Shown: positions 4,787 to 42,709, counted from the stretch's first letter. The stretch is 64,000 bases of DNA from an uncultured Saprospiraceae bacterium (GCA_964626595.1 CAZVFU010000005.1:4892-68891), one strand, 5' to 3'. The notes: a model not told the origin generated them from the letters alone. A program made the numbers and translations.

Positions 4787-7700
4787 ATGAAGCTTCTCCG
4801 CCTTGAAATGAAGGGATTTAAGAGTTTTGCCCGGGAAACTGTCATTCATTTTAATGAAAGAATTACCGGTGTCGTCGGCCCAAATGGGTCGGGTAAATCT
4901 AATGTCGTTGATGCTATTCGTTGGGTTTTGGGAGAGCAGAAGTCTTCAGAACTCCGGCTGGAAAAAATGGGCGATATTCTGTTTAATGGAACTCAAAAAA
5001 GAAAACCCGCGCCTGTCGCTCGGGTTTCTGTCACCTTTGAAAATGACAAAGGCCTCATTAATTCCGAGTACTCCGAATTATCCGTGACTCGAATTTTATA
5101 TCGATCGGGAGAAAGTGAATACCGACTCAATGATGTCTCCTGTCGACTTAAAGACATCCGCTCTGTTCTTTTAGATACAGGCATTGGAAGTAATTCCTAT
5201 GCCATTATCGCTTTGGGTATGGTGGATGATATCCTTAGCGATAAAGATCAGGCCAGAAGAAAAATGTTCGAGCAAGCGGCTGGAATTTCCAAATACAAAT
5301 CTCGCAAGCGCGAAACGCTCAACAAACTAAAACTGACAAAAGCGGACCTGGATCGGGTAGAAGACTTGCTGCACGAACTCGAGAATACACTTAAACAACA
5401 AAAAAAGCAGGCTCGAAGAGCTGAAAAATACTTGAACTTAAAGGATAAATATAAATCCTATAGCATCGATTTAGCGATATTGAACTCCAGTCGTGCCCGG
5501 TCGGACTTCAAGTCGATAAAAGAGGAGTTGGGGCAAGTACAATCTGCATTTGACGAAATTACAGCCCAAATCAATACGAAAGAGGCAGAAGTAGAGAGTA
5601 AAAAGCAGATTAATCTCGAAAAAGAAAGCTCAGTATCTCAAAATCAAAGAGACCTTTCTGCGATTGTTCGCGAAACCCAATCTCTTGAAAACAAAAGGGA
5701 TATTACCCGCCAAAGTATTTCCTACGGACAGCAGGCGATTAAAAGACTGGAAAATCAAATTTCAGACAAAACTCAAAAGCTAAAAGAGTATACGAGCACC
5801 ATTACTCGCCTTGAGTCTGAAATTCTCGCGGAGAATGCGATCCTAAAAGAGCGTCAGGATGCTCTTGAGAAACTTAAGACTCAAAAGACAGAAAGTCAGA
5901 AATCATATCAGGAAATAAAATCGGGGCGATCTGATCGACTGCAGAAATTGCAAGTTCTCCAACAGCAGGAATATGATTGGAAACAAAAAATTGCTGTACT
6001 CGAATCGCGTGTTGAAACTATCCAAAGCCAAATGAAACGCTTTGATGAGCAATTGGAATCGCAATCGCAGCGAAAAAGTGAGTTGAAGGCAGAATGGGAC
6101 CGCCAAAATGAATTATTGATCCAGCTGGAACACAATCTTAACCAACTTCAAAAGAATGAAGCCGAGCGCAAAGAAATGCTGGTTTCCCTTGAAGAGCAAA
6201 AGGAGGAAAAGACAAAAGAAGCTCAGGAGCTGGAGCGGAAATACGACGCTCTTCAAAATGAATTTAAATTGCTCAAAAACCTGGTTGAAAAACTCGAGGG
6301 ATTTCCGGAATCGACCAAATTTCTCATGCGCTCAAAGAAATGGAACAAGCCAGCAGCCCTCTTTTCGGATGTGCTGATTTCTCCAGCAGAGTATCGAGCC
6401 GCATTGGAAAATTATTTAGAAAATTATCTCAGTCACTTTATCGTGAACCAGGCTCAGGATGCATTGGAAGGGATCAAATTGCTCAAAGAATCCCAAAAGG
6501 GTAAAGCACACTTTTTGCTAAACAATATCTCTGAAAACTCATCTCAAACTCAGGACATACCTCAGGCAAAACCCGCCTTGCAAGTTGTCGAAACCGACTC
6601 CGCCTACGCCGGCTTAATTGGACAGCTACTTCACGAGGTTTATCTGGTTGAGAACGAAGACCTGGGCTATAGCCTTTCTCAGCAATATCCGGACTATACC
6701 TTCCTCGTCAAGGATGGTAGCGCTTCCTTTCACAAATCACTCATGAGCGGAGGATCCTCCGGCCTATTTGAAGGAAAACGGCTAGGGCGAAAGAAAAACC
6801 TGAAAAAAATTGAAAGGGAAATCCATTCGATTTCTCAGGATTTGCAAAATAGGCATCAAACCATCCAATCTCTGACTCATGAGATTCATGGCCTGAAAAA
6901 AGAACAGCAAGAAGAGGAAATGAGAGCCCTGCAGGCTAAACTTGCAGATGCGAAAAGCGCCACGCAAAAAACGAGTTTACAGCTTTCAAACCTGGATGAA
7001 GCAGCCGGGGAATTCCAAAGCCAAAAACAAAATTTAGCGACCGAAAAATCCGAAATTCATAAACAAATTATCCATATCCAGGAGCAATGGGAAGGCCTGA
7101 AAAAGGAAAAGTTTGAGCTGGAAAAAAAAGTCGAACAAGTCGACTCCATTTACGAACAGCATGCACAGACTTTTTCTGAACTATCCCAAAAATACAATGA
7201 GGCACATATCAAGCTCATTCAGCAGGAAAATAGATGTAGCCAGCTAGAAAAAGATCTACAATACCAGAAATCCAGAAAGACGGAACTCTCAGATTTGCTC
7301 GAACAGCATAAAACGGAAATTGAAGAGCAAACAGAAGAGCAAAAAAAGCACAAGCAAACAGAAATTGAAACCAAAAACCGGCTAGCTCAACTATACCGGG
7401 ATAAAGAACACAAAAGTGAAGCCCTTAATGCTGCGGAACGCATTTATTTTGAAGCGCGAAACATGATATCGGGACTTGAAAAAGAGGTGAAGCAGCTTCT
7501 CCAGCAACAGAGACAAAAGCAGGAACTTATCCAATCCCTGAAAGAGCGCCACACGGAGTCTAAAATGGTTCTTCATGGTATTTCTGAACGCCTGAAAGTG
7601 GAATTCGATATTTCAATAAATCAGATTATTGATCAGTCCCCCGATTTCGAGGGTACCCGTGAGGAATTGGATCATGAGTTGACGAAGATCAAGGGAAAGT

Positions 7701-8692: not shown

Positions 8693-9487
8693 ATGCGAAC
8701 ATATTTAGATTTGTTGCAGGATATTTTAGATCAGGGTGTCGATAAATCTGATAGGACAGGGGTCGGAACGCGATCTGTTTTCGGGAGGCAAGTTCGCTTT
8801 AACTTGCAAGAAGGATTTCCCCTGATTACCACGAAAAAAGTCCATTTAAAATCTATCATTTACGAACTGCTCTGGTTCTTAAAAGGAGATACCAACGTGA
8901 AGTATCTGCAAGAGCATAATGTTCGCATTTGGAATGAATGGGCTAAAGATGATGGAAGTTTAGGTCCGATTTATGGGAGACAATGGAGAAGTTGGCCCGA
9001 TGGCTCTGAAAGTGGAATCGATCAGATTCAACAAGCCATTGAGGCGATTAAAACCAATCCGGATTCTCGACGAATAGTTGTCAGTGCCTGGAATGTTGCT
9101 GAACTTGAAGAGATGCAGCTGAACCCCTGCCACGTAATGTTTCAGTTTTATGTTGCAGAGGGAAGGCTCTCATGTCAATTGTATCAGCGATCTGCAGATG
9201 TGTTTTTAGGGGTGCCCTTCAATATAGCCTCCTATAGTTTATTGACAATGATGATCGCTCAAGTTTGTGATCTGCAAATTGGTGAATTTGTACACACATT
9301 TGGCGATCTTCACTTATATCAAAATCACTTTGAGCAAGCCCGGCTTCAGTTAAGTCGAGAACCTAGAGCTTTACCTACGATGAAAATAAACCCGAACGTA
9401 AAAAATATTGATCAATTTTCTTACAATGACTTTCAGCTCCTGAATTATGATCCACATCCATCCATTAAAGCAAAGGTGGCGGTATGA
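8693..9487 (+). CDS. thyA: Thymidylate synthase (ThyA type)
   Basis: 264 aa. Near-canonical ThyA blocks are present: [22 protein letters not shown]-like [15 protein letters not shown], the active-site PCH ([12 protein letters not shown]), [18 protein letters not shown] and GDLHLYQNH. Confidence 0.97.
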
Positions 9488-9563
9488 GAAGATGCTGCAA
9501 TTTAGACAAGTTCTAAATAAAATCGATTAGCATGGCTTTATTGGTTTTAGACGGAAAGGATTC

Positions 9564-9571
9564 TATTTTTG
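9564..9571 (+). promoter_or_regulatory. Candidate -7 promoter box (TAnnTTTG) upstream of the actA operon
   Basis: TATTTTTG lies about 70 nt upstream of the actA ATG. Motif match only. Confidence 0.3.
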
Positions 9572-9641
9572 AGTGACCAAATTAAGACGCAGATAAGCGT
9601 GATATACGACAATGATTGACCTACATAATTAGACATTAGAT

Positions 9642-11096
9642 ATGAACTATAAATTGCTATCATTATGTGTGTTTCTACTTACTTTTTCCTTAACTGGGCT
9701 CACTTTGCATGCCCAGGAAGGTGAAGAAAGTGAATCTGGCACAGCAGCAGTTGACCTGGATGCGGGAAAAAGTTTATTCCGCTCGCAGTGTGCATCCTGT
9801 CACAATAAGAATATGAAGGATGACCTCACTGGGCCAGCTTTGGGTGGTACACAAGAAAGGTGGGCCGAATATCCCCGTGAAGACCTTTACACTTGGATTC
9901 GATATTCTCAGCGTATGATTTCTGACGGTCACCCTCGCGCGACTGAACTCTGGGGTACTTGGAAGCCAACCGTCATGAATAATTTCCCCAATCTTACGGA
10001 TCAGGAAATCGAAAATGTCTTGGCCTACATCCAGGGCGTATATGAAGGTACATATCCACCTAAAGCGGCCGGAGAAGAGGTTGCTGCAGTAGATGTGGGA
10101 ACAGAAGAGGATTCCTCAAATACCTTTCTTTTCATCACCTTGGCTTTGATTCTCTTTATTCTATCATTTGTACTGGCCCGTATTATCGGTGTTTTAAATG
10201 CAATTGCGCGGGCCAAAGCAGAGGGAACAGTGGCTCCTTCCCGAAGTATTTGGCAAGTTCTTACCTCTAAATCAGTAGTTGGACTCCTTATTTTTGCCTT
10301 AGTTGTGGTAGGAGGGTATACGACAGTAAATAATGCCATTAACTTAGGTCGTCAGCAGGGTTATGCGCCTCAGCAACCGATTAAGTTTTCTCACGAAACT
10401 CATGCTGGTCTACACAAAATCGACTGCCAATACTGTCACGATGGAGCGCGTCGAAGTAAGCACTCCGTCATTCCAGCGGCTAACACTTGTATGAATTGCC
10501 ACAGAGCAATTAAAAAAGGGTCAAAATATGGAACGCAAGAATTGACAAAGGTTTTTGCATCCATTGGTTACGACCCGATAAACGATACATATATTGAGGA
10601 CTATGAAGAAATGTCCAATGAAGAGATAGCAGACATCTACAAAAAATGGATTGAAGCGGAATATGTTAAGGATAATGAACTGGACATTATTGATGAGGAG
10701 GGTAAACTTGTCAGAGATGATCAATGGGACGAAATTGTCAGTTCTCTCACGAACGAGCAAAAAGAGTCAGTAGCGGGACCGATCGAATGGGTTCGCATAC
10801 ATAATATGCCTGATCATGTCTATTTTAACCATGCCCAACATGTTACTTCCGGGCAAGTAGAATGTGAGCAGTGCCACGGAGCAGTGGAAGAAATGGAGGT
10901 GCTGGCTCAATATGCCCCTCTATCGATGGGGTGGTGCATAAATTGCCACAGACAATCTGAAGTTAAAGGATTTCAAGATAATCCTTACTATCATAAAGAG
11001 TTTGAACACTATCATAACGAATTACAGAATGGTGAGCGCGAAAAAGTGACTGTCGAGGATATTGGCGGTTTGGAATGCCAAAAATGTCACTATTAA
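9642..11096 (+). CDS. actA: Alternative complex III subunit ActA: multiheme cytochrome c with an extra N-terminal monoheme cytochrome c domain
   Basis: It has six CxxCH motifs. CASCH lies in an N-terminal class-I-like domain, followed by a TM helix and then CQYCH, CMNCH, CEQCH, CINCH and CQKCH. It also has a signal peptide and sits first in the act cluster. Confidence 0.9.
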   Translation: MNYKLLSLCVFLLTFSLTGLTLHAQEGEESESGTAAVDLDAGKSLFRSQCASCHNKNMKDDLTGPALGGTQERWAEYPREDLYTWIRYSQRMISDGHPRATELWGTWKPTVMNNFPNLTDQEIENVLAYIQGVYEGTYPPKAAGEEVAAVDVGTEEDSSNTFLFITLALILFILSFVLARIIGVLNAIARAKAEGTVAPSRSIWQVLTSKSVVGLLIFALVVVGGYTTVNNAINLGRQQGYAPQQPIKFSHETHAGLHKIDCQYCHDGARRSKHSVIPAANTCMNCHRAIKKGSKYGTQELTKVFASIGYDPINDTYIEDYEEMSNEEIADIYKKWIEAEYVKDNELDIIDEEGKLVRDDQWDEIVSSLTNEQKESVAGPIEWVRIHNMPDHVYFNHAQHVTSGQVECEQCHGAVEEMEVLAQYAPLSMGWCINCHRQSEVKGFQDNPYYHKEFEHYHNELQNGEREKVTVEDIGGLECQKCHY

Positions 11097-33176: not shown

Positions 33177-33698
33177 TTATTGAGATTTGGTATAAGATTG
33201 TTTGTATTGACTCCAGGGCGTCTTTTTGAAGTGGTCATCACCGATGTAAGTCATTATCGTTTTGAAAGTGGTGGCATCCTGATACCCTTTCACAGGCTGG
33301 ATAACCTCAGCTTCTTCATTTAGGAATATAAAAGTGGGGTAGGAGAGTTGGTTGCGGGAAATATGAGCAGCCAATTCGTGATAGTCTCGCTTTCCTTTTC
33401 GCTCTCTTAGCTTGAAAACCTTTCCCTTAAATTGAATACTTTCTTTTTGTTCGGCATTAAATTTTACCGGATAAAAATTAGAGTTCAGATATTCAATGAT
33501 AAAGGGATCGGTCATTGTGGTTTTGTCCATTCGTTTACACCAACCACACCAATCCGTATATAAATCTACAAAGATTTTTTTCTGTTCCTTTTTTTGTGCC
33601 TCTATAGCTTCTTCAAAACTCATCCATTGCACTTTTTGTGCTTCGGAGTGAATTGGGCCCAAAAAGAAAAACGAAATCAACACAAAAAATCGACACAT
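33177..33698 (-). CDS. Secreted thioredoxin-fold protein (Thioredoxin_7/DUF255-like)
   Basis: 173 aa. It has a signal peptide and a WCGWC redox motif in DLYTDWCGWCKRMD. Confidence 0.75.
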   Translation of the reverse strand: MCRFFVLISFFFLGPIHSEAQKVQWMSFEEAIEAQKKEQKKIFVDLYTDWCGWCKRMDKTTMTDPFIIEYLNSNFYPVKFNAEQKESIQFKGKVFKLRERKGKRDYHELAAHISRNQLSYPTFIFLNEEAEVIQPVKGYQDATTFKTIMTYIGDDHFKKTPWSQYKQSYTKSQ

Positions 33699-33873
33699 TA
33701 CACTGGATTTTATATCAAGTATACGTAATATTAGTTAAAATGATTTTTTCTCACTTACTTATCCACTGACTTTAATAGAAATTTAACTATTTAAGTGCTT
33801 TATACCTATTCTTTTCTTCTCTATCGTAAGGAAACATTAACTTGCCCGTTGATTGGGTAATGTTATTTGCCAA

Positions 33874-34569
33874 ATGTTAGATAGAGGTTCCATTGCAATT
33901 TTATTGTTTAGCTTTTCCCCTGAGCGTTCAGCAAGAGAAAAAACCTGGCTGCGCAATAGGGGTAAGAATATCGAATTACATCAGCGAGTCCATAAGCGCA
34001 TAAAGTGTTTAGCTCGACGAGCAGGTGTTGACTTCTTCCATATTGACGAAGGTCAGCAACTGGGAAGGGATTTTCAGGATCGTCTTTGGAATGCTGTTGA
34101 GCATGTCTTTAATCAAGGTTATCGTGCGGTGCTGACTCTGGGTGGTGATACGCCGACTTTAACTGACATCATCCTTCAACGAAGCTTGAATCAACTTCAG
34201 TGCGAGCATAATGTTTTGGGGCCCAGCAGAGACGGGGGGACCTATTTGATTGGCTTTCAAAGAGCTTGGTTTCTAAATATCCGTCACCATCAAATTCAAT
34301 GGCATGCCGGCACCGATTTTGATCAGCTTTTATCTCTATTGACGCAGGAGGAAGTTTGGATCGCTCCTGTTTTATCGGATTGGGATACATTTACAGACAT
34401 TCAGTATCAATTGTGTCAGCAGCCCGCGTTTTGGCTTTGGAGAGTAATCATTTCTGATTTGCTCATTTCGTCTTGCGAAATCACATTTGTGAGAAGTGTT
34501 TATAGAAAAGTTCAAAATTTGGTTTTCGGTTTAGGCATGCGGGCTCCTCCTCTGCGGCAACTTTTTTAG
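33874..34569 (+). CDS. DUF2064 family protein (CofC/MobA-like nucleotidyltransferase fold; TIGR04282-like)
   Basis: IAILLFSFSP..., QQLGRDFQDRLWNA, LTLGGDTP and LGPSRDGGTYLIGF follow the DUF2064 block order as I recall it. I prefer ATG 33874 over the TTG at 33853. Confidence 0.7.
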   Translation: MLDRGSIAILLFSFSPERSAREKTWLRNRGKNIELHQRVHKRIKCLARRAGVDFFHIDEGQQLGRDFQDRLWNAVEHVFNQGYRAVLTLGGDTPTLTDIILQRSLNQLQCEHNVLGPSRDGGTYLIGFQRAWFLNIRHHQIQWHAGTDFDQLLSLLTQEEVWIAPVLSDWDTFTDIQYQLCQQPAFWLWRVIISDLLISSCEITFVRSVYRKVQNLVFGLGMRAPPLRQLF

Positions 34570-34607
34570 TTTTTCCCTTTGCAACTTTGAAAACCAAAAG
34601 ACTTAAA

Positions 34608-37600
34608 ATGAACTTAGCCTTACGTCTATACGTATGCAGATTTATCTGTATCCATCTTCTGATTGTGCCCTTTTTTGCGGGAGCTCAATCATCCCTTACC
34701 GTTTATTTATTTGACCGCGATCTGGACCAGCCCATTTCAGCTCATAGTGTTGTTCTGGAGCATGCCCCGAGTGGCCTTCAACTTTCCGGATTGACTGACA
34801 ATCAGGGAATCTTTACTTTTAAGAATTTAACCGCACGAGCGAATTACAGCTTAATTTCCCTGGAATCCCCCCAGTACAGACCAGACACTATTTCTAATAT
34901 TTCTTTGCGCTCACGAGAGGAAAAGTATCTGGATATGGGGGTGTCAAGCCGGCAATCGATAGATTTGGATGAAATTGTTATTAAAGCCCGACCCTCTCAG
35001 CGTATCAATAGGACCAACGCCGAGGTGGCCTTTGAATTGGATGAAAAAAATATTCAGGCTATTCCTGTGGAGGGACGTGATATTACTCGTGTCCTCTACC
35101 GCATGCCTAACGTTTCTCAAGCGACAGGATTTTATCCAGAGGCTCCCAATGTGAGTATTAATGGGGCAAATCCGCTGTATTCCACCTACTTAATTGATGG
35201 CATGGACAATAACGAGCGTTTTCTAGGTGGTCAAAAGTTTCCGATACCGACTGGATTCACTCAAAATATTACGCTCTTAACCAACAATTATAGCGCGGAA
35301 TATGGACTGGCTGGAAATGGAGTTTTAAATATTACGACCAAGTCGGGAACCAATGAATTCTCCGGCGAGGCCTTCACTATTACACGCCCGGGAGCTGTCA
35401 TCGATGGCAATACCCGGTTTCCACAACGCGATCTATCCGGCAACTTAGTCAAAGAAGGCTTCCAGCGGTATCAGGCTGGCGTCGGTTTCGGAGGCGCGCT
35501 TGTGGAAGATAAGACCTTTTATTACCTCAATGTTGAGCACACAACTGACCTCAAACAAAATATTTTGAGCTCACCATCTCTTGGTGTAAGTGAGAACGTA
35601 AATGGGCAAAATCAGTTTACCTATATTTCAGGTAAAATTGACCAGATTTGGAGTAAAAAATTTCGCTCCTCTCTTAGATATAATGAGGGAATCGTACGCG
35701 TGGAAAATCCGGGCGGTGGTTTGACGGGTGGAGTTACATTTCCATCTGCCGGACTCGTTCAAGATCGATTGTCCCGGCACGTGGCATTGAAGAATACTTA
35801 TCATACGAATAGCTTGAGTATTCAGACAAACTTACAATACTCTCGCTTTCGATGGAATTACGGTCGGCCTCTTCAAGGAGGGAATAGCCCTCAGGTTACT
35901 CTACTTGACGCGATGGAGGTTCCGGCTGCCGTACTGGGACACCCTGGATTCGTTTTCGATCAAACTGAGCACACCTTTCAATGGCAACAAAAACTCATGC
36001 TCTACGTCGGTAATCATCGCATCAAAGCGGGTGGTGGGATTATTCACAGCAGACACTCCCTTTTTGGAGGAGGAAATCCCAATGGGAATTATCGGGTGAA
36101 ACTCAGTGAGAGCCAACAAAACAACCTACCCCGGGGATTAGGCTCGAACCTGTCGATTGAAGATTTACCTTCAGATATTGAGGTTTTGAACTATAATGTG
36201 GAGTTACGCCCCAATTCCTTCGGTCGGAATCAAACGGTGTACTCTTTGTTTGTTGAAGATCAATTTCGACTCAATCACCGCATGAATGTCACAGCAGGTC
36301 TGCGTTATGATTATGATAAGCTGACCGAAGATCCCAATGGAAACGGAGATGTTAACAATCTGGCGCCCCGCCTTAATCTGAATTACAAATTGACTGATAA
36401 ATCTGTCCTTCGCGCTGGGTATGGCATGTTTTACGACAAGATCATTTACGCAGTAATAAGTGATGCGCTCCAACAAAATACGGTTTCTCCGGACTATGCC
36501 AGACAGGTAGAATATCTGCTTGCTCAAAACGGCCTGTATGGAGATTATAATATCGAAGACGTATTGTTTAATGGAAATTTGCAAGCTGGCCAGAATCAGG
36601 TTGAATTTTTAGAAGGGCCCACTGCTGAAGAGGTGGATATTCCGCGAGACCTGATTTTTAGCAATGAGCGCCGTATTTTACCCCCTAATGGATTGATAAA
36701 TCCGGTTACACATCAATTTTCTATAGGCTACCAGAATCAGCTAAATGAGACCACCTTATTTTTCGTTGACCTCATGCACAATCGATCTTATCATTTATTC
36801 CGACTTCGAAATTTAAATCGCGCGGCTCCGTATGACATCGATCCGGATAATGTTGAAATACGAACTATGGCCCAGGCAGACGCTCAGCGCTTGGCACCTG
36901 TTCTTTTTGATGAAGAGTCGGGTTTGCCGTATGTCGATGTCCTGGGTGAGCGCCTGTATGGAGGTGCCCGGAATGTCATGCTGACAGAGACAGCTGGTGA
37001 AAGCCGGTACTATGCAGCTTCTTTCAATATGCAAAAGCAAAGAGGAGAAGATGACTACTCCTTTTTATTAAACTATACGCTCTCTCGACTTCGAAATAAT
37101 ACTGAAGACATTAATTTTCGTGCGATGGATGCCAATGATTTTGAGGCCGAATGGGGCCCCTCTATAAATGATCGCTCACATATTATTAACGGTATTTTTA
37201 CCTATTATCTGGAAAGTAGCTGGCAATTCACTCTGGCTGCATTATTGCAAAGCGGACAGCCCATCAATCGCATTCCGGATGCGACCCAATTTGGCACGAC
37301 AGATTTGAATGGAGATGGTTCTTCCTTCGGCGATGCTTATGTGGGTAATAGCGATCGACATCCTGGAGAGTCTCGAAATTCGGATCGATTACCCTGGGCT
37401 AATACTTTTGACGTATCCATAACTTATGAATGGCAGCTGGGCAAGAATGCGCTGGAGCTCCGAGCTGATGTGTTTAATATTTTTAATGCACAGAATCTAA
37501 GTGGCTACAGTAACAATGCCACGCAGAGTAACCAAATTCAGCCGGGGTCGATTGCCAGTGGAGTGCTTATCCGCCGAAATGCATCTCCTCCTCGTCAATT

Positions 37601-37628
37601 CCAATTTAGTCTACGTTACCTTTGGTAA
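34608..37628 (+). CDS. TonB-dependent receptor with an N-terminal carboxypeptidase-regulatory-like domain
   Basis: About 1006 aa. It has a signal peptide, a CarboxypepD_reg-like segment (LTVYLFDRDLDQPIS...GIFTFKNL), a plug region (DEIVIKARP...IQAIPVEGRDITRVLYRMPNV), a long beta-barrel and a terminal RYLW. The track start is TTG 34587. Confidence 0.85.
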   Translation: MNLALRLYVCRFICIHLLIVPFFAGAQSSLTVYLFDRDLDQPISAHSVVLEHAPSGLQLSGLTDNQGIFTFKNLTARANYSLISLESPQYRPDTISNISLRSREEKYLDMGVSSRQSIDLDEIVIKARPSQRINRTNAEVAFELDEKNIQAIPVEGRDITRVLYRMPNVSQATGFYPEAPNVSINGANPLYSTYLIDGMDNNERFLGGQKFPIPTGFTQNITLLTNNYSAEYGLAGNGVLNITTKSGTNEFSGEAFTITRPGAVIDGNTRFPQRDLSGNLVKEGFQRYQAGVGFGGALVEDKTFYYLNVEHTTDLKQNILSSPSLGVSENVNGQNQFTYISGKIDQIWSKKFRSSLRYNEGIVRVENPGGGLTGGVTFPSAGLVQDRLSRHVALKNTYHTNSLSIQTNLQYSRFRWNYGRPLQGGNSPQVTLLDAMEVPAAVLGHPGFVFDQTEHTFQWQQKLMLYVGNHRIKAGGGIIHSRHSLFGGGNPNGNYRVKLSESQQNNLPRGLGSNLSIEDLPSDIEVLNYNVELRPNSFGRNQTVYSLFVEDQFRLNHRMNVTAGLRYDYDKLTEDPNGNGDVNNLAPRLNLNYKLTDKSVLRAGYGMFYDKIIYAVISDALQQNTVSPDYARQVEYLLAQNGLYGDYNIEDVLFNGNLQAGQNQVEFLEGPTAEEVDIPRDLIFSNERRILPPNGLINPVTHQFSIGYQNQLNETTLFFVDLMHNRSYHLFRLRNLNRAAPYDIDPDNVEIRTMAQADAQRLAPVLFDEESGLPYVDVLGERLYGGARNVMLTETAGESRYYAASFNMQKQRGEDDYSFLLNYTLSRLRNNTEDINFRAMDANDFEAEWGPSINDRSHIINGIFTYYLESSWQFTLAALLQSGQPINRIPDATQFGTTDLNGDGSSFGDAYVGNSDRHPGESRNSDRLPWANTFDVSITYEWQLGKNALELRADVFNIFNAQNLSGYSNNATQSNQIQPGSIASGVLIRRNASPPRQFQFSLRYLW

Positions 37629-37640
37629 AAATATACCCTT

Positions 37641-38603
37641 ATGAATCATCCATTTGAACATCTCGAGTCTGTTTATTGGGTTTTTACACAGCTCTGTAAT
37701 GACGAATGCGACCATTGCTATAATAGCTCTGGTCCCCAAGGAGAGCGCATATCCCAGGAGGACTGCTTCAAAATTATTGATCACTTACCCCCATCTATGG
37801 ACCGTCTCATACTATCTGGTGGAGAGCCACTGGCGGACCGGAAGAAACTCTACGCCATTTTGGATCGCCTGGAGGAGAAGTATCAGGGGGAAGTCGAAAT
37901 TATGCTCCAGACCAACGGGGACCTATTAAATCCTGAACGCTTAGATACCTTGATCGATAAAGGTGTGACGCGTTTTGATATTGCGAGTATCGATCGATAC
38001 CATAAGCATGCAGGTGGCCGACTCATGGAATTAAGCGATCTTTTTGAAGCAGCAGGTGTAGATGGTCAGGATTCAGATCCCTTAATTGACAAAGAGAATT
38101 ATGTGAAAAATAAGAGATTGAGTTGGGGGTATTGGGGCGCCTCCGAAGATATGTGGCTCGGCGGAAATTGGGCACGTGGCCGGGCTCTGGAAAAGGATAA
38201 TTGGATGCGCGATCCCGATCATAACTTCTGTGCCATTTTATCCGGCGCTCGAAATTTCCTCGGTGGGTATGATGACATACCTCAGGAAATTAGCATACAG
38301 CTTTGGAAAATTAATCCCTGCTGCCCCGGCACGCTGTTCCCTATGGGTGATGCTCGGAAAGACTACATCCCCGATGTCCTCCTAAATGTCAGTAAACATC
38401 CTGTCTTTCAGGCACTGCAAAAAGGAGAACCCTGGGAAATGGGAAAACACCTGGGCATTTCTCGACAGGAAGCCAAAGTAAAAACCCAAGCTGTTGAAAA
38501 CATTTGTCTGTATTGCGACCAGTTTTTTCAAGAAAATATGCAAGATTGGAATACGGGTACATTTACACCACTACCTGTAGTTAATCCTTCTTCAGCAGAT
38601 TAA
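37641..38603 (+). CDS. Radical SAM enzyme, subfamily unassigned, with a Cys-containing C-terminal domain
   Basis: 320 aa. The CxxxCxxC motif (CNDECDHC) spans residues 19-26, followed by SGGEPL and MLQTNGDLL motifs. Five further Cys lie in the C-terminal half (NFC, INPCCPG, CLYC). It has no signal peptide and starts 12 nt after the TonB-dependent receptor stop. Confidence 0.85.
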   Translation: MNHPFEHLESVYWVFTQLCNDECDHCYNSSGPQGERISQEDCFKIIDHLPPSMDRLILSGGEPLADRKKLYAILDRLEEKYQGEVEIMLQTNGDLLNPERLDTLIDKGVTRFDIASIDRYHKHAGGRLMELSDLFEAAGVDGQDSDPLIDKENYVKNKRLSWGYWGASEDMWLGGNWARGRALEKDNWMRDPDHNFCAILSGARNFLGGYDDIPQEISIQLWKINPCCPGTLFPMGDARKDYIPDVLLNVSKHPVFQALQKGEPWEMGKHLGISRQEAKVKTQAVENICLYCDQFFQENMQDWNTGTFTPLPVVNPSSAD

Positions 38604-40441: not shown

Positions 40442-42709
40442 ATGAGAATTATTATTATTGCCTTTATCCTATTGTGCTCCACATGGGTTTGGGCACAGGA
40501 TGCCACCATACGAGGAAATGTATATGACTCCGAGAGTGGTGAACCGATCATGTTTGGAAACGTATTAGTCCAGGGGACTTCAATAGGCGCTAACACAGAC
40601 GTAGATGGGTTTTTCTCCATTAAAACGAAGCCCGGAACATACAATATTGTATTTTCTTATCTAGGATATGACTCTACCTCTGTTGAGGTAACAGTAGAGC
40701 CTGGTGATATCGAATATGTTTCAGCAAAATTAGATCCTTCCGGTGTCCAATTATCCACGGTGGATGTCTCAGCCAAACGGGATCGTGCTCGCACTGAAGT
40801 CCAAATTTCAACTCAGCGTGTTTCACAAGAAGATATTCAATCGCTACCATCTATAGGTGGAGATGCGGATATAGCTCAATATCTCCCGGTATTACCTGGT
40901 ATTATTTTCACCGGCGATCAGGGGGGGCAGCTATATATTCGGGGAGGTTCTCCCGTCCAAAACCTGGTTTTGTTAGACGGTATGACCTTGTATAATCCCT
41001 TTCACTCCATTGGTTTATTCTCCGTATTTGAAACAGAATTGGTTCAAGATGTAGAAGTCCAATCGGCAGCCTTTAGCGCTGAATATGGAGGTCGGGTTTC
41101 TGCTGTATTAGATATCAAAACCAAAAGTGGAAATCGTAAGCGATGGGGTGGAAGTGCCGGGGTAAGCCCATTTCAGGCTAAAGTAGTTGTTGATGGCCCG
41201 CTGATCCCGCAAACAGAAGATAGGGAGTCTTCTCTCTCTCTTGTTTTTGCGGCCAAAGAGGCACTTATTGATGAGACCGATGATATTTTATACAACTATG
41301 CATTTGATTCTGTAGGTCTGCCCTTCAACTACAGAGACTTTTATGGGAAACTTTCCTACATCATAGGTAATGGATCCAAAGCGGACCTATTTGGGTTCAA
41401 TTTCACAGATCAGGTAAATTTTCCCGGTGTGGCCAACTTAGATTGGGATGCTACTGGAGGTGGTTTGAACTTTAAAGTTATTCCTTCCAGTTCAAGCTTA
41501 ATTCTTTCGGGGATCATTGCAGCCTCATCCTATGATATTAGCTTGCTTGAAACAGATGGTAATCCTCGGAACAGCAGTATAAACACCATAAATGCCAATT
41601 TGGATTTTACTTATTACGGAGGCCAAAGTGAATTCAATTATGGCGTAGGGATGAATAGCATAGGTACAGAATTTCGTTTTCAAAATTTCGCCGGTTTTAA
41701 TTTTGAGCAGGAAGATTTTAATACTGAACTATCTGGTTATCTAAAATATAAACAACAGATAGGAGACCTTATTTTGGAGCCCTCTGTACGTTTAATGTAC
41801 TATTCTTCAATTAATGAAATCACGGTTGAGCCTCGTTTCCGGTTCAAATACAACATCAGTCGAAACCTTCGATTTAAAGGTGGAGTCGGATACTACACTC
41901 AGAACTTATTAAGTACGGTGAATGATCGGGATATTGTCAATTTATTTGTTGGTTTTCTGCTCGGTCCTAAAGAGGGATTGATTGATCCCGAAACGAATTC
42001 GCGCACAGATTCCCGCTTGCAAAAGGCATGGCATTATGTAGCTGGCGTGGAATACGACATAGGCCGAAATCTTACTTTCAACCTGGAAGGATATCTCAAA
42101 TCCTTCAATCAAATGATCAATATCAATCGAAACAAATTGTCGGCTAGCGATCCCAATTATGTTGTCGAAACAGGTGAAGCGTATGGAATGGATTTTAATA
42201 TGGATTTCAAGAAAGGCAATTGGGATGTCTGGCTGACGTACTCTCTAGCATTTGTGAATCGCTTTGACGGGGAACAAACTTATCCTACTAATTTTGATCG
42301 CCGACACAACTCCAATGTGCTGATTACTTATAAGTTCGGAAATGAAAACAGTTGGGAGGTAAGTGGAAGATGGAATTTAGGAACTGGGTTTCCCTTTACC
42401 CTCACAGAAGGGTTTTATGGACGGTACAATTTTAATGACGGGCTGAATGAAGACTTAACTACGGGGAACCCTGAACTGGGAATTGTTTTTGACGATCGAA
42501 TTAATGGTGGGCGTTTACCCACTTACCATCGATTGGATCTATCTTTGAAAAAGACCTGGAAATTATCAAAGTATGGCGCTATCGAGTTAAATGTTAGTGC
42601 CACAAACGCATATAATCGTCAGAATATTTTCTTCTTTGACCGAGTCGAATACGATCGAGTGGATCAATTGCCGATTATGCCTGCAATTGGTATTACTTAT
42701 AGGTTCTAA
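40442..42709 (+). CDS. TonB-dependent receptor with an N-terminal carboxypeptidase-regulatory-like domain
   Basis: 755 aa. It has a signal peptide, a CarboxypepD_reg-like segment (ATIRGNVYDSESGEPIMFGNVLV...DGFFSI), a plug (SLPSIGGDADIAQYLPVLPGI...LYIRGGSPVQNLVLLDGMTLYNPFH), a beta-barrel and a terminal ITYRF. Confidence 0.85.
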   Translation: MRIIIIAFILLCSTWVWAQDATIRGNVYDSESGEPIMFGNVLVQGTSIGANTDVDGFFSIKTKPGTYNIVFSYLGYDSTSVEVTVEPGDIEYVSAKLDPSGVQLSTVDVSAKRDRARTEVQISTQRVSQEDIQSLPSIGGDADIAQYLPVLPGIIFTGDQGGQLYIRGGSPVQNLVLLDGMTLYNPFHSIGLFSVFETELVQDVEVQSAAFSAEYGGRVSAVLDIKTKSGNRKRWGGSAGVSPFQAKVVVDGPLIPQTEDRESSLSLVFAAKEALIDETDDILYNYAFDSVGLPFNYRDFYGKLSYIIGNGSKADLFGFNFTDQVNFPGVANLDWDATGGGLNFKVIPSSSSLILSGIIAASSYDISLLETDGNPRNSSINTINANLDFTYYGGQSEFNYGVGMNSIGTEFRFQNFAGFNFEQEDFNTELSGYLKYKQQIGDLILEPSVRLMYYSSINEITVEPRFRFKYNISRNLRFKGGVGYYTQNLLSTVNDRDIVNLFVGFLLGPKEGLIDPETNSRTDSRLQKAWHYVAGVEYDIGRNLTFNLEGYLKSFNQMININRNKLSASDPNYVVETGEAYGMDFNMDFKKGNWDVWLTYSLAFVNRFDGEQTYPTNFDRRHNSNVLITYKFGNENSWEVSGRWNLGTGFPFTLTEGFYGRYNFNDGLNEDLTTGNPELGIVFDDRINGGRLPTYHRLDLSLKKTWKLSKYGAIELNVSATNAYNRQNIFFFDRVEYDRVDQLPIMPAIGITYRF

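Follow-up and report, generated by a model that had tools for sequence, protein, structure and literature searches.

A conserved Bacteroidota operon combining a TonB-dependent receptor, a DUF2064 variant and a radical-SAM enzyme outside curated families

In an uncultured Saprospiraceae bacterium, genes for a DUF2064 protein, a TonB-dependent outer-membrane receptor and an enzyme of the radical S-adenosylmethionine (SAM) type are packed together at positions 33874 to 38603 of a 64,000-nucleotide (nt) stretch of DNA (GCA_964626595.1 CAZVFU010000005.1:4892-68891), which was analyzed at its full length and is called the window below. This trio is the reduced form of an operon that recurs across classes of Bacteroidota. 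Among the closest described systems is the cyanobacterial arsenosugar pathway, which comprises ArsS, ArsM, TIGR04282 and TIGR04283 proteins. ArsS adenosylates dimethylarsenite to 5'-deoxy-5'-dimethylarsinoyl-adenosine (PMC13598754) and represents the precedent for the transfer of a 5'-deoxyadenosyl group to a substrate by a radical-SAM enzyme. The partners common to that pathway and to the system described here are DUF2064/CofC-like proteins, GT2 enzymes, rhodanese, DUF547 proteins and a nucleoside-cleaving enzyme, and five loci of our system also have a gene for an ArsM-like methyltransferase directly upstream of the radical-SAM gene. In contrast to the arsenosugar pathway, our system includes a dedicated TonB-dependent receptor and an ATP-binding cassette (ABC) importer, its radical-SAM protein falls outside the ArsS family and has a C-terminal domain that matches nothing, the window DUF2064 protein scores under the TIGR04282 cut-off, and any role for arsenic is putative.

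The ydjXYZ-ynjABCD-ynjE locus of Escherichia coli, which encodes the putative transporter YnjBCD, provides a second point of reference. Its YnjB protein belongs to the same family, NF008633, as the binding protein of the importer found in relatives of the window, and a rhodanese gene follows the importer both in E. coli (ynjE) and in some loci of a distant clade whose radical-SAM proteins are about 30% identical to that of the window. However, the E. coli locus has no radical-SAM, DUF2064 or TonB-dependent receptor gene, and the window itself has no ABC genes. In E. coli K-12 (L176, 1833401-1840774; compared contigs and loci are cited by L numbers), ynjBCD has as its flanking genes two of the DedA family, one of the 4Fe-4S ferredoxin type, the AhpD-like ynjA and ynjE, which encodes the rhodanese.

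The same logic underlies heme-uptake operons with ChuW/HutW and phosphonate operons with PhnJ, where the compound taken up is the target of a radical enzyme whose gene is co-transcribed with those for an ABC importer and/or an outer-membrane receptor. Neither ChuW, which is HemN-like, nor PhnJ has any sequence relationship to the radical-SAM protein described here, and their partner genes differ. Moreover, those enzymes break a compound down, whereas the chemistry proposed below would build a product. The structural relatives EpeE/YydG and BtrN (PDB 8ai1 and 4m7t) have in common with our protein a partial TIM-barrel core and, after it, a C-terminal domain that bears Cys residues and could hold one auxiliary Fe-S cluster. 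Their substrates differ, a peptide for EpeE and an aminoglycoside precursor for BtrN. Identity to them is 16% and the template-modeling (TM) scores are 0.5 to 0.6, and our protein reaches no twitch or SPASM model.

A conserved operon and its reduced form in the window

Open reading frame (ORF) listing of the window showed three co-oriented genes, all intact, with gaps of exactly 38 nt and then 12 nt, in agreement with an initial annotation of this DNA. The features are as follows.

33874..34569, + strand: DUF2064 variant, 231 amino acids (aa), first gene of the operon (PF09837, alignment A7)
34608..37628, + strand: TonB-dependent outer-membrane receptor, 1006 aa (Pfam)
37641..38603, + strand: radical-SAM enzyme, 320 aa, uncurated family (PF04055, PF13353)
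33763..33789, no strand: conserved block CCACTGACTTTAATAGAAATTTAACTA within the 175 nt that separate the divergent genes (intergenic alignment)

The ORF of gene 1 can start at 33853 or 33874, and the N termini of its orthologues favor the ATG at 33874 (A7). For gene 2 (34587 or 34608), the ATG at 34608 agrees with the gene call in an identical contig, L002.

We scanned one genome per species for relatives of the radical-SAM gene, and at least 561 of the 600 pattern matches sampled encode one. The operon was then described from the 80 best loci or from 83 Bacteroidota loci, and the presence of each gene was counted in the 56 loci with at least 9 kb of upstream sequence. All 80 best loci belong to Bacteroidota (Saprospiria, Cytophagia, Flavobacteriia and Chitinophagia), with radical-SAM proteins 65 to 75% identical to that of the window, and they come from Saprospiraceae, Lewinellaceae, Hymenobacter, Pontibacter, Flavobacteriaceae, Chitinophagaceae, Fulvivirga and Microscilla. 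Both tblastn and ORF clustering revealed a common gene order: DUF2064 variant, receptor, YnjB-family binding protein, two permeases, ATPase, optional accessory genes and radical-SAM enzyme. The radical-SAM gene comes last in all loci and in most of them abuts or overlaps the gene before it. Thus, the trio is not confined to this genome.

The YnjBCD-type genes, located between those for the receptor and the radical-SAM enzyme, are among the most constant elements of the operon: the ATPase gene is present in 54 of the 56 loci and the binding protein gene in 51, compared with 48 for the receptor gene and 42 for a DUF2064 gene at the operon head. The coupling to uptake that the initial annotation had suggested thus holds and is stronger than that annotation could show. 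The binding protein of the relatives scored 397 bits against NF008633 (PRK11622; cut-off 203) and is 38% identical to E. coli YnjB. A sequence search returned no solved structure for it.

By tblastn, the ABC importer genes are missing at the window locus and in the rest of the 64-kb window. The window, the 100% identical contig L002 and the loci L083-L085, whose radical-SAM proteins are 79 to 85% identical to that of the window, all have the same trio and the same flanking genes, showing that the three genes form a real operon, as first annotated. The ABC genes have therefore disappeared from this locus in the lineage of the window, where the trio is still intact. The packing of an outer-membrane receptor between two cytoplasmic enzymes, which had been singled out as a layout matching no described system, results from this loss and not from any particular design. 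The adjacency of the three genes is far beyond chance, because the orthologous arrangement recurs across Bacteroidota classes.

The receptor has an N-terminal signal peptide followed by carboxypeptidase-regulatory-like, plug and barrel domains. The Pfam matches to Plug (30.2 bits versus 23.9), OMP_b-brl_4 (200 bits) and TonB_dep_Rec_b-barrel (53 bits) correspond to the plug and the subsequent 22-strand-type barrel of TonB-dependent receptors. The initial assignment of a receptor of about 1000 aa is thus correct. In contrast, the CarboxypepD_reg domain that was also assigned to it stays under its threshold (28.2 versus 32.3 bits). Orthologues at the same operon position are full-length and 45 to 61% identical.

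Gene 1 encodes a DUF2064 protein with a CofC/MobA-like fold, as proposed initially: it scored 63.5 bits against PF09837 (gathering threshold 25.8) and matches PDB 3cgx (E = 4e-12). However, it is not a TIGR04282 protein, since it reached 73 bits for a cut-off of 134 and covers only positions 72 to 189 of that profile, i.e., the C-terminal two thirds, whereas genuine members of the family in relatives score 162 to 213 bits. We aligned the operon-leading DUF2064 variants with genuine TIGR04282 proteins (A7). The variants retain the G-G/N/S-D-x-P and D-G-G-x-Y-L motifs, but the N-terminal G-K-x-K-T-R-L motif is missing and is replaced by S-A-R-E-K-T-W-L in the window protein. They also have a deletion of about 20 residues downstream of the site of that motif, and an extra C-terminal tail of about 50 residues, ending with R-[AG]-P-P, that genuine TIGR04282 proteins do not have. 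Within the lineage with the reduced trio, the DUF2064 variants are just 39 to 46% identical, compared with 79 to 85% for the radical-SAM proteins and 74 to 82% for the receptors. The window protein thus looks like a divergent, fast-evolving paralogue of TIGR04282 with a CofC/MobA-like nucleotidyltransferase fold. In Puia (L072), a canonical TIGR04282-like gene stands at the operon head in place of the variant, and two Saprospiraceae loci have a genuine TIGR04282 gene (181 bits) between the binding protein and permease genes.

Among the accessory genes, that for the ArsM-like methyltransferase mentioned above immediately precedes the radical-SAM gene in five loci of Flavobacteriia (L058, at 9260-9997, L039, L055, L071 and L078). 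Two adjacent paralogous genes for proteins of about 210 aa (hhalign probability 87%) are found inside the operon in 29/83 loci, or about 40% of loci (e.g., L001 at 4855-6122, L039, L045 and L058); they are absent from the window. These proteins have no sequence match in Pfam, NCBIfam or the PDB. One of them, unkB, shows very strong conservation, many of its His, Trp and Cys residues being invariant, and has a ThuA-like, class I glutamine-amidotransferase-like fold, which is uninformative about the substrate. ORF clustering of the 83 loci with a minimum of 80 aa, a threshold that a short precursor peptide would escape, did not reveal any other conserved family of genes.

The radical-SAM family and its gene neighbors

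The third gene of the operon encodes a protein that scored 55 bits against PF04055 (threshold 29.5) and also matches Fer4_12 (PF13353). Its translation contains both strings quoted in the initial annotation, CNDECDHCYNSSGP and SGGEPL. The CX3CX2C motif, C19/C23/C26 (CNDECDHC), is located near the N terminus and is invariant in alignment A2; likewise, G60, G61 and E62 of the SAM-binding GGE motif are invariant in alignment A1. Additional Cys residues are conserved in the C-terminal part of the protein in both alignments: Cys197 (N-F-C), Cys227/228 (P-C-C-P) and Cys289/292 (C-x-x-C-D).

We compared the protein with the June 2026 release of Pfam and NCBIfam. It remained below every curated NCBIfam family, with 43 bits for the best one (NirJ2) and cut-offs of 130 to 650, and ArsS (TIGR04167) was absent from the 25 best of its 43 matches. 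The C-terminal 197 aa gave no Pfam or NCBIfam match at E <= 1, and hence match neither the DUF3641 nor the SPASM model. The protein did not match SPASM (PF13186), and N_Twi_rSAM scored 27.5 bits versus 170. These results uphold the earlier view that the enzyme is not ArsS, and place it in no characterized family. Apart from the general radical-SAM domain, neither Pfam nor NCBIfam has a model that recognizes this family. An F420-type pathway, which would combine CofC-like and CofG/H-like proteins, was considered and rejected: CofG/H was not among the 25 best families, and no CofD or CofE was noticed among the neighbors.

In a confident AlphaFold model of the protein (predicted local distance difference test of 83.7), the nearest PDB folds are the twitch-type enzymes EpeE/YydG (E = 9e-9, TM score 0.56) and BtrN, followed by sactisynthases, viperin and MoaA. 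The model thus places the protein in the twitch/SPASM structural class, with no close solved relative. A search of 5.8 billion proteins returned 1213 matches, the best 120 of which are at least 67% identical to the query; all named ones among these are from Saprospiraceae, Lewinellaceae or other Bacteroidota. Clustering at 50% identity left just 26 representatives at E <= 1e-30. As judged from these comparisons, the family is populous yet narrow in sequence space. A distant homologue of 25% identity is found in L174 (3876-4772) and L175 (2679-3575), where small genes that all point the same way are densely arrayed, together with genes for a cell-wall hydrolase and an HD protein; the array looks phage-like.

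Genes of the arsenosugar type are found near the radical-SAM gene both in Bacteroidota and in more distant clades of the family. Downstream of the radical-SAM gene, four loci of Flavobacteriia have genes for a rhodanese (NF045521, 210 bits versus 145), a TIGR04282 protein (213 versus 134) and a purine nucleoside phosphorylase. Of these four loci, two additionally have DUF547 and TIGR04283 (215 versus 182) genes, and one a fatty-acid hydroxylase gene. In L081, the purine nucleoside phosphorylase gene starts 7 nt past the stop codon of the radical-SAM gene. Altogether, at least one of TIGR04282, TIGR04283, NF045521, purine nucleoside phosphorylase and DUF547 is encoded within 10 kb in about 14 of the 83 loci, from four classes.

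More distant clades, defined by the identity of their radical-SAM proteins to that of the window, show related arrangements. At 51% and 58% identity, the ABC importer genes overlap the radical-SAM gene. In a clade at 42%, the TIGR04283 (210 versus 182), radical-SAM and TIGR04282 (162 versus 134) genes overlap in this order, and in a clade at 37%, which includes L166, genes for a nucleoside hydrolase, a DUF547 protein and a kinase that matches S-methyl-5-thioribose kinase as its top family precede the radical-SAM gene. In the clade at about 30%, from high-G+C soil metagenomes, the radical-SAM gene is always followed by the gene of a YnjB-family binding protein (484 bits), then by those of a fused permease and of an ATPase; in some cases a rhodanese gene comes next, and in some there are TIGR04282, TIGR04283 and DUF547 genes nearby. 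The radical-SAM family is thus linked across distant lineages to YnjBCD-type importers and to the set of TIGR04282, TIGR04283, DUF547, rhodanese and nucleoside-cleaving genes.

In this set, the radical-SAM gene holds the position that ArsS has in canonical sets. A second protein with a CX3CX2C motif was not found in any of the 163 loci, arguing that a canonical ArsS-type enzyme is absent from them. Together with the placement between genuine TIGR04283 and TIGR04282 genes in the 42% clade, this bears out the earlier proposal of a different partnership between DUF2064 and radical-SAM proteins. What is already known is the association of a radical-SAM enzyme with DUF2064 and GT2 partners, and what is new is the non-orthologous enzyme together with its dedicated uptake machinery. 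Our literature searches, which covered DUF2064 with radical SAM, YnjB, TIGR04282, DUF547 and arsenosugar enzymes, returned no description of the radical-SAM family or of the operon.

Two further observations concern neighboring genes. In about 27 loci of the 30% clade, genes for a cytosine deaminase (798 bits), a uracil phosphoribosyltransferase and a URC1-like GTP cyclohydrolase II (778 bits) lie directly upstream in the same orientation. This group, seen for instance in L091, L093, L101, L142, L145 and L153, looks like a pyrimidine-catabolism cluster; it also includes a gene that gave no match in the family scan and that we take to be DUF1688-like. In L151, an ORF of 723 aa lies beside TIGR04282, TIGR04283 and DUF547 genes, and its N-terminal sequence suggests that it is possibly DedA/TVP38-like. 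As DedA genes are also found at E. coli ynjBCD, the gene network may extend to Proteobacteria.

Leader and flanks of the window locus

Upstream of the trio, a divergent gene (33177-33698) encodes a secreted protein with a thioredoxin fold (matches to Thioredoxin_7, Thioredoxin_2 and DsbH-like in Pfam). The initial annotation was thus right about the existence and nature of this gene. However, it is retained beside the trio only in the closest relatives, L083-L085, and is outside the conserved system. The same holds for a second TonB-dependent receptor gene (40442-42709) with a SusC-like N terminus, which is syntenic with the trio only in L083-L085 and does not belong to the conserved operon. 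The absence of a plausible precursor-peptide ORF from the flanks of the trio, also noted initially, was confirmed.

When the intergenic regions of the window and of L083, L084 and L085 were aligned, the block at 33763..33789 proved to be the best conserved, which makes it a candidate promoter or operator common to the operon and the thioredoxin-like gene. A scan for promoters and terminators gave site counts that were not above those of shuffled sequence. A hairpin followed by a T-rich run is located at 33842-33860 in the leader, 14 nt 5' of the DUF2064 start codon; it is not conserved in L083 or L085. The motif [CT]GTAA[GA]G is enriched ahead of the operon: it was present in 15 of 37 regions, compared with 2.4 expected from shuffles, at 15 to 107 nt before the first start codon of the DUF2064 ORF, and its carriers are the window, Flavobacteriia, Hymenobacter and Pontibacter. 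We make no claim for this motif, given its overlap with the -7 promoter box of Bacteroidetes and its absence from the closest relatives of the window.

Rfam models gave no match at gathering thresholds in the window, none at E <= 1 between 33000 and 39000, and none in front of the operon in seven relatives. The only match was a cobalamin riboswitch (92 bits) about 2 kb downstream of the operon in one Saprospiraceae genome (L012, 13014-13183), where it probably controls an unrelated gene.

Favored and rival explanations

We tentatively propose that the trio represents the core, still retained here, of a conserved operon with which Bacteroidota would take up a substrate and modify it, and in which the radical-SAM enzyme would have an ArsS-like, adenosylating role on the imported compound. 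According to this proposal, the receptor and an inner-membrane importer, encoded at the locus or elsewhere, would bring in a scarce small substrate. The radical-SAM enzyme would cleave SAM reductively and, beyond mere hydrogen abstraction, couple the 5'-deoxyadenosyl group to the substrate, as ArsS does. Adenine would then be removed by a phosphorylase, or by a nucleosidase and a kinase, yielding a 5-substituted ribose-1-phosphate, which DUF2064-type proteins of CofC/MobA-like nucleotidyltransferase fold would activate. Finally, a GT2 enzyme would transfer the ribosyl unit to an acceptor, possibly a lipid. We favor an adenosylating role because of the two associations found across lineages, the ArsS-like position of the gene and the coherent chain of partner enzymes, and our best inference is that the enzyme may replace ArsS. 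Our leading guess for the substrate would be a metalloid, such as a methylated arsenic species, or a selenium species, given the ArsM-like methyltransferase gene upstream in five loci, the rhodanese and the arsenosugar-type neighbors. The names of the partner families, too, would hint at arsenic, another metalloid or a chalcogen.

Several points weigh against this proposal. The functional evidence is all guilt by association, and so is the basis on which TIGR04282 and TIGR04283 received their "arsenosugar" names. Just about 14 of the 83 Bacteroidota loci have arsenosugar-type genes within 10 kb, and the 64 kb of the window contain none. The ArsM-like protein scored 163 bits for a family cut-off of 263; it has three conserved cysteines, but a Gly in place of the cysteine of the S-N-C-V motif, which is one of the conserved cysteines of ArsM. 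The DUF2064 variant may be non-catalytic, because the N-terminal motif, of nucleotide-binding type, is missing and because the protein evolves fast. A dedicated import system of high affinity for arsenic would, to our knowledge, be unprecedented. Among solved structures, the nearest folds are those of a peptide epimerase and a dehydrogenase, which both abstract hydrogen, and none is that of an adenosylating enzyme. Lastly, the nucleosidase or phosphorylase and the kinase could be equally suited to clearing the by-product 5'-deoxyadenosine.

In the main alternative explanation, the system would serve the release or salvage of a nutrient. An imported organic compound would then undergo ordinary hydrogen-abstraction chemistry, such as C-X cleavage, dehydrogenation or rearrangement, much as with ChuW in heme-uptake operons or PhnJ in phosphonate operons, and the nucleoside enzymes and the kinase would merely clear inhibitory 5'-deoxyadenosine. 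The very tight coupling of the radical-SAM gene to the importer, the hydrogen abstraction performed by both EpeE and BtrN, and the lack of arsenosugar-type genes within 10 kb in most loci all fit this explanation, as does the resemblance of the L166 kinase to methylthioribose kinase, a type of enzyme that serves 5-deoxyribose salvage. However, no isomerase or aldolase of a 5-deoxyribose shunt was found beside the kinase or the phosphorylase in the loci with gene calls, and no enzymes for the catabolism of a carbon skeleton recur in the Bacteroidota operon. Salvage would also leave the DUF2064 gene at the operon head and the TIGR04283/radical-SAM/TIGR04282 sandwich unexplained, and we regard it as rather unlikely. 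The uptake of a pyrimidine- or thiamine-type compound that is remodeled by the radical-SAM enzyme is quite improbable. It would agree with YnjBCD being the nearest relative of the thiamine importer ThiBPQ, with the weak best matches of the permeases and the ATPase, which are ThiP/ThiQ, 2-aminoethylphosphonate and polyamine transporters, and with the pyrimidine genes directly upstream in the 30% clade. However, the latter are confined to one high-G+C group of lineages, whose members are at least 60% identical to each other, and their position may reflect lineage synteny. No such genes are found in the Bacteroidota loci, and neither a thiamine pyrophosphate riboswitch nor any other precedes the operon in the window and the seven relatives.

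The best PDB fold match, EpeE, together with several weak NCBIfam matches to peptide maturases, raises the question of the maturation of a ribosomally synthesized and post-translationally modified peptide, with the radical-SAM enzyme modifying a small peptide as EpeE does and the receptor moving it. There is no conserved small ORF in the window flanks, nor any further conserved family among the ORFs of at least 80 aa in the 83 loci, although this threshold would miss a short precursor. The radical-SAM protein gave no SPASM match, no domain for the recognition of such peptides and no protease or exporter gene were found, and the constant partners are an importer and small-molecule enzymes, which makes peptide maturation very improbable. 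A chance association of three unrelated genes is even harder to credit: its only support is that the window alone could not exclude it, whereas the arrangement recurs across Bacteroidota classes and parts of it in other lineages. We therefore consider both of these explanations effectively excluded.

An ArsS-like, adenosylating role in uptake and modification thus remains our preferred explanation, and the system is a good experimental lead, not a solved function. A bolder extension of it, which we consider distinctly unlikely, is that Bacteroidota, and other phyla through YnjBCD-type importers, would import a metalloid or trace element by a dedicated receptor and ABC transporter and fix it into 5'-deoxyribosyl sugars or lipids by means of a so far unrecognized, adenosylating radical-SAM family of separate origin from ArsS. 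If this is true, organo-element biosynthesis would have its first dedicated route of uptake, and the orphan transporters of the E. coli YnjBCD type would be assigned a function.

The radical-SAM family is widespread, with at least 561 species genomes, and remains 65 to 75% identical across Bacteroidota classes, yet it has no curated model. Its near-obligate link to YnjBCD offers the first testable handle on a transporter that is still "putative" in E. coli K-12. If the enzyme is adenosylating, it would enlarge the small set of radical-SAM enzymes that transfer adenosyl groups. Its ArsS-like position beside TIGR04282 and TIGR04283 would indicate either a second, independent 5'-deoxyribosyl organo-element enzyme or a chemistry of this gene set that is wider than its name, and either outcome would be relevant to the cycling of arsenic and selenium by abundant marine and soil Bacteroidota.

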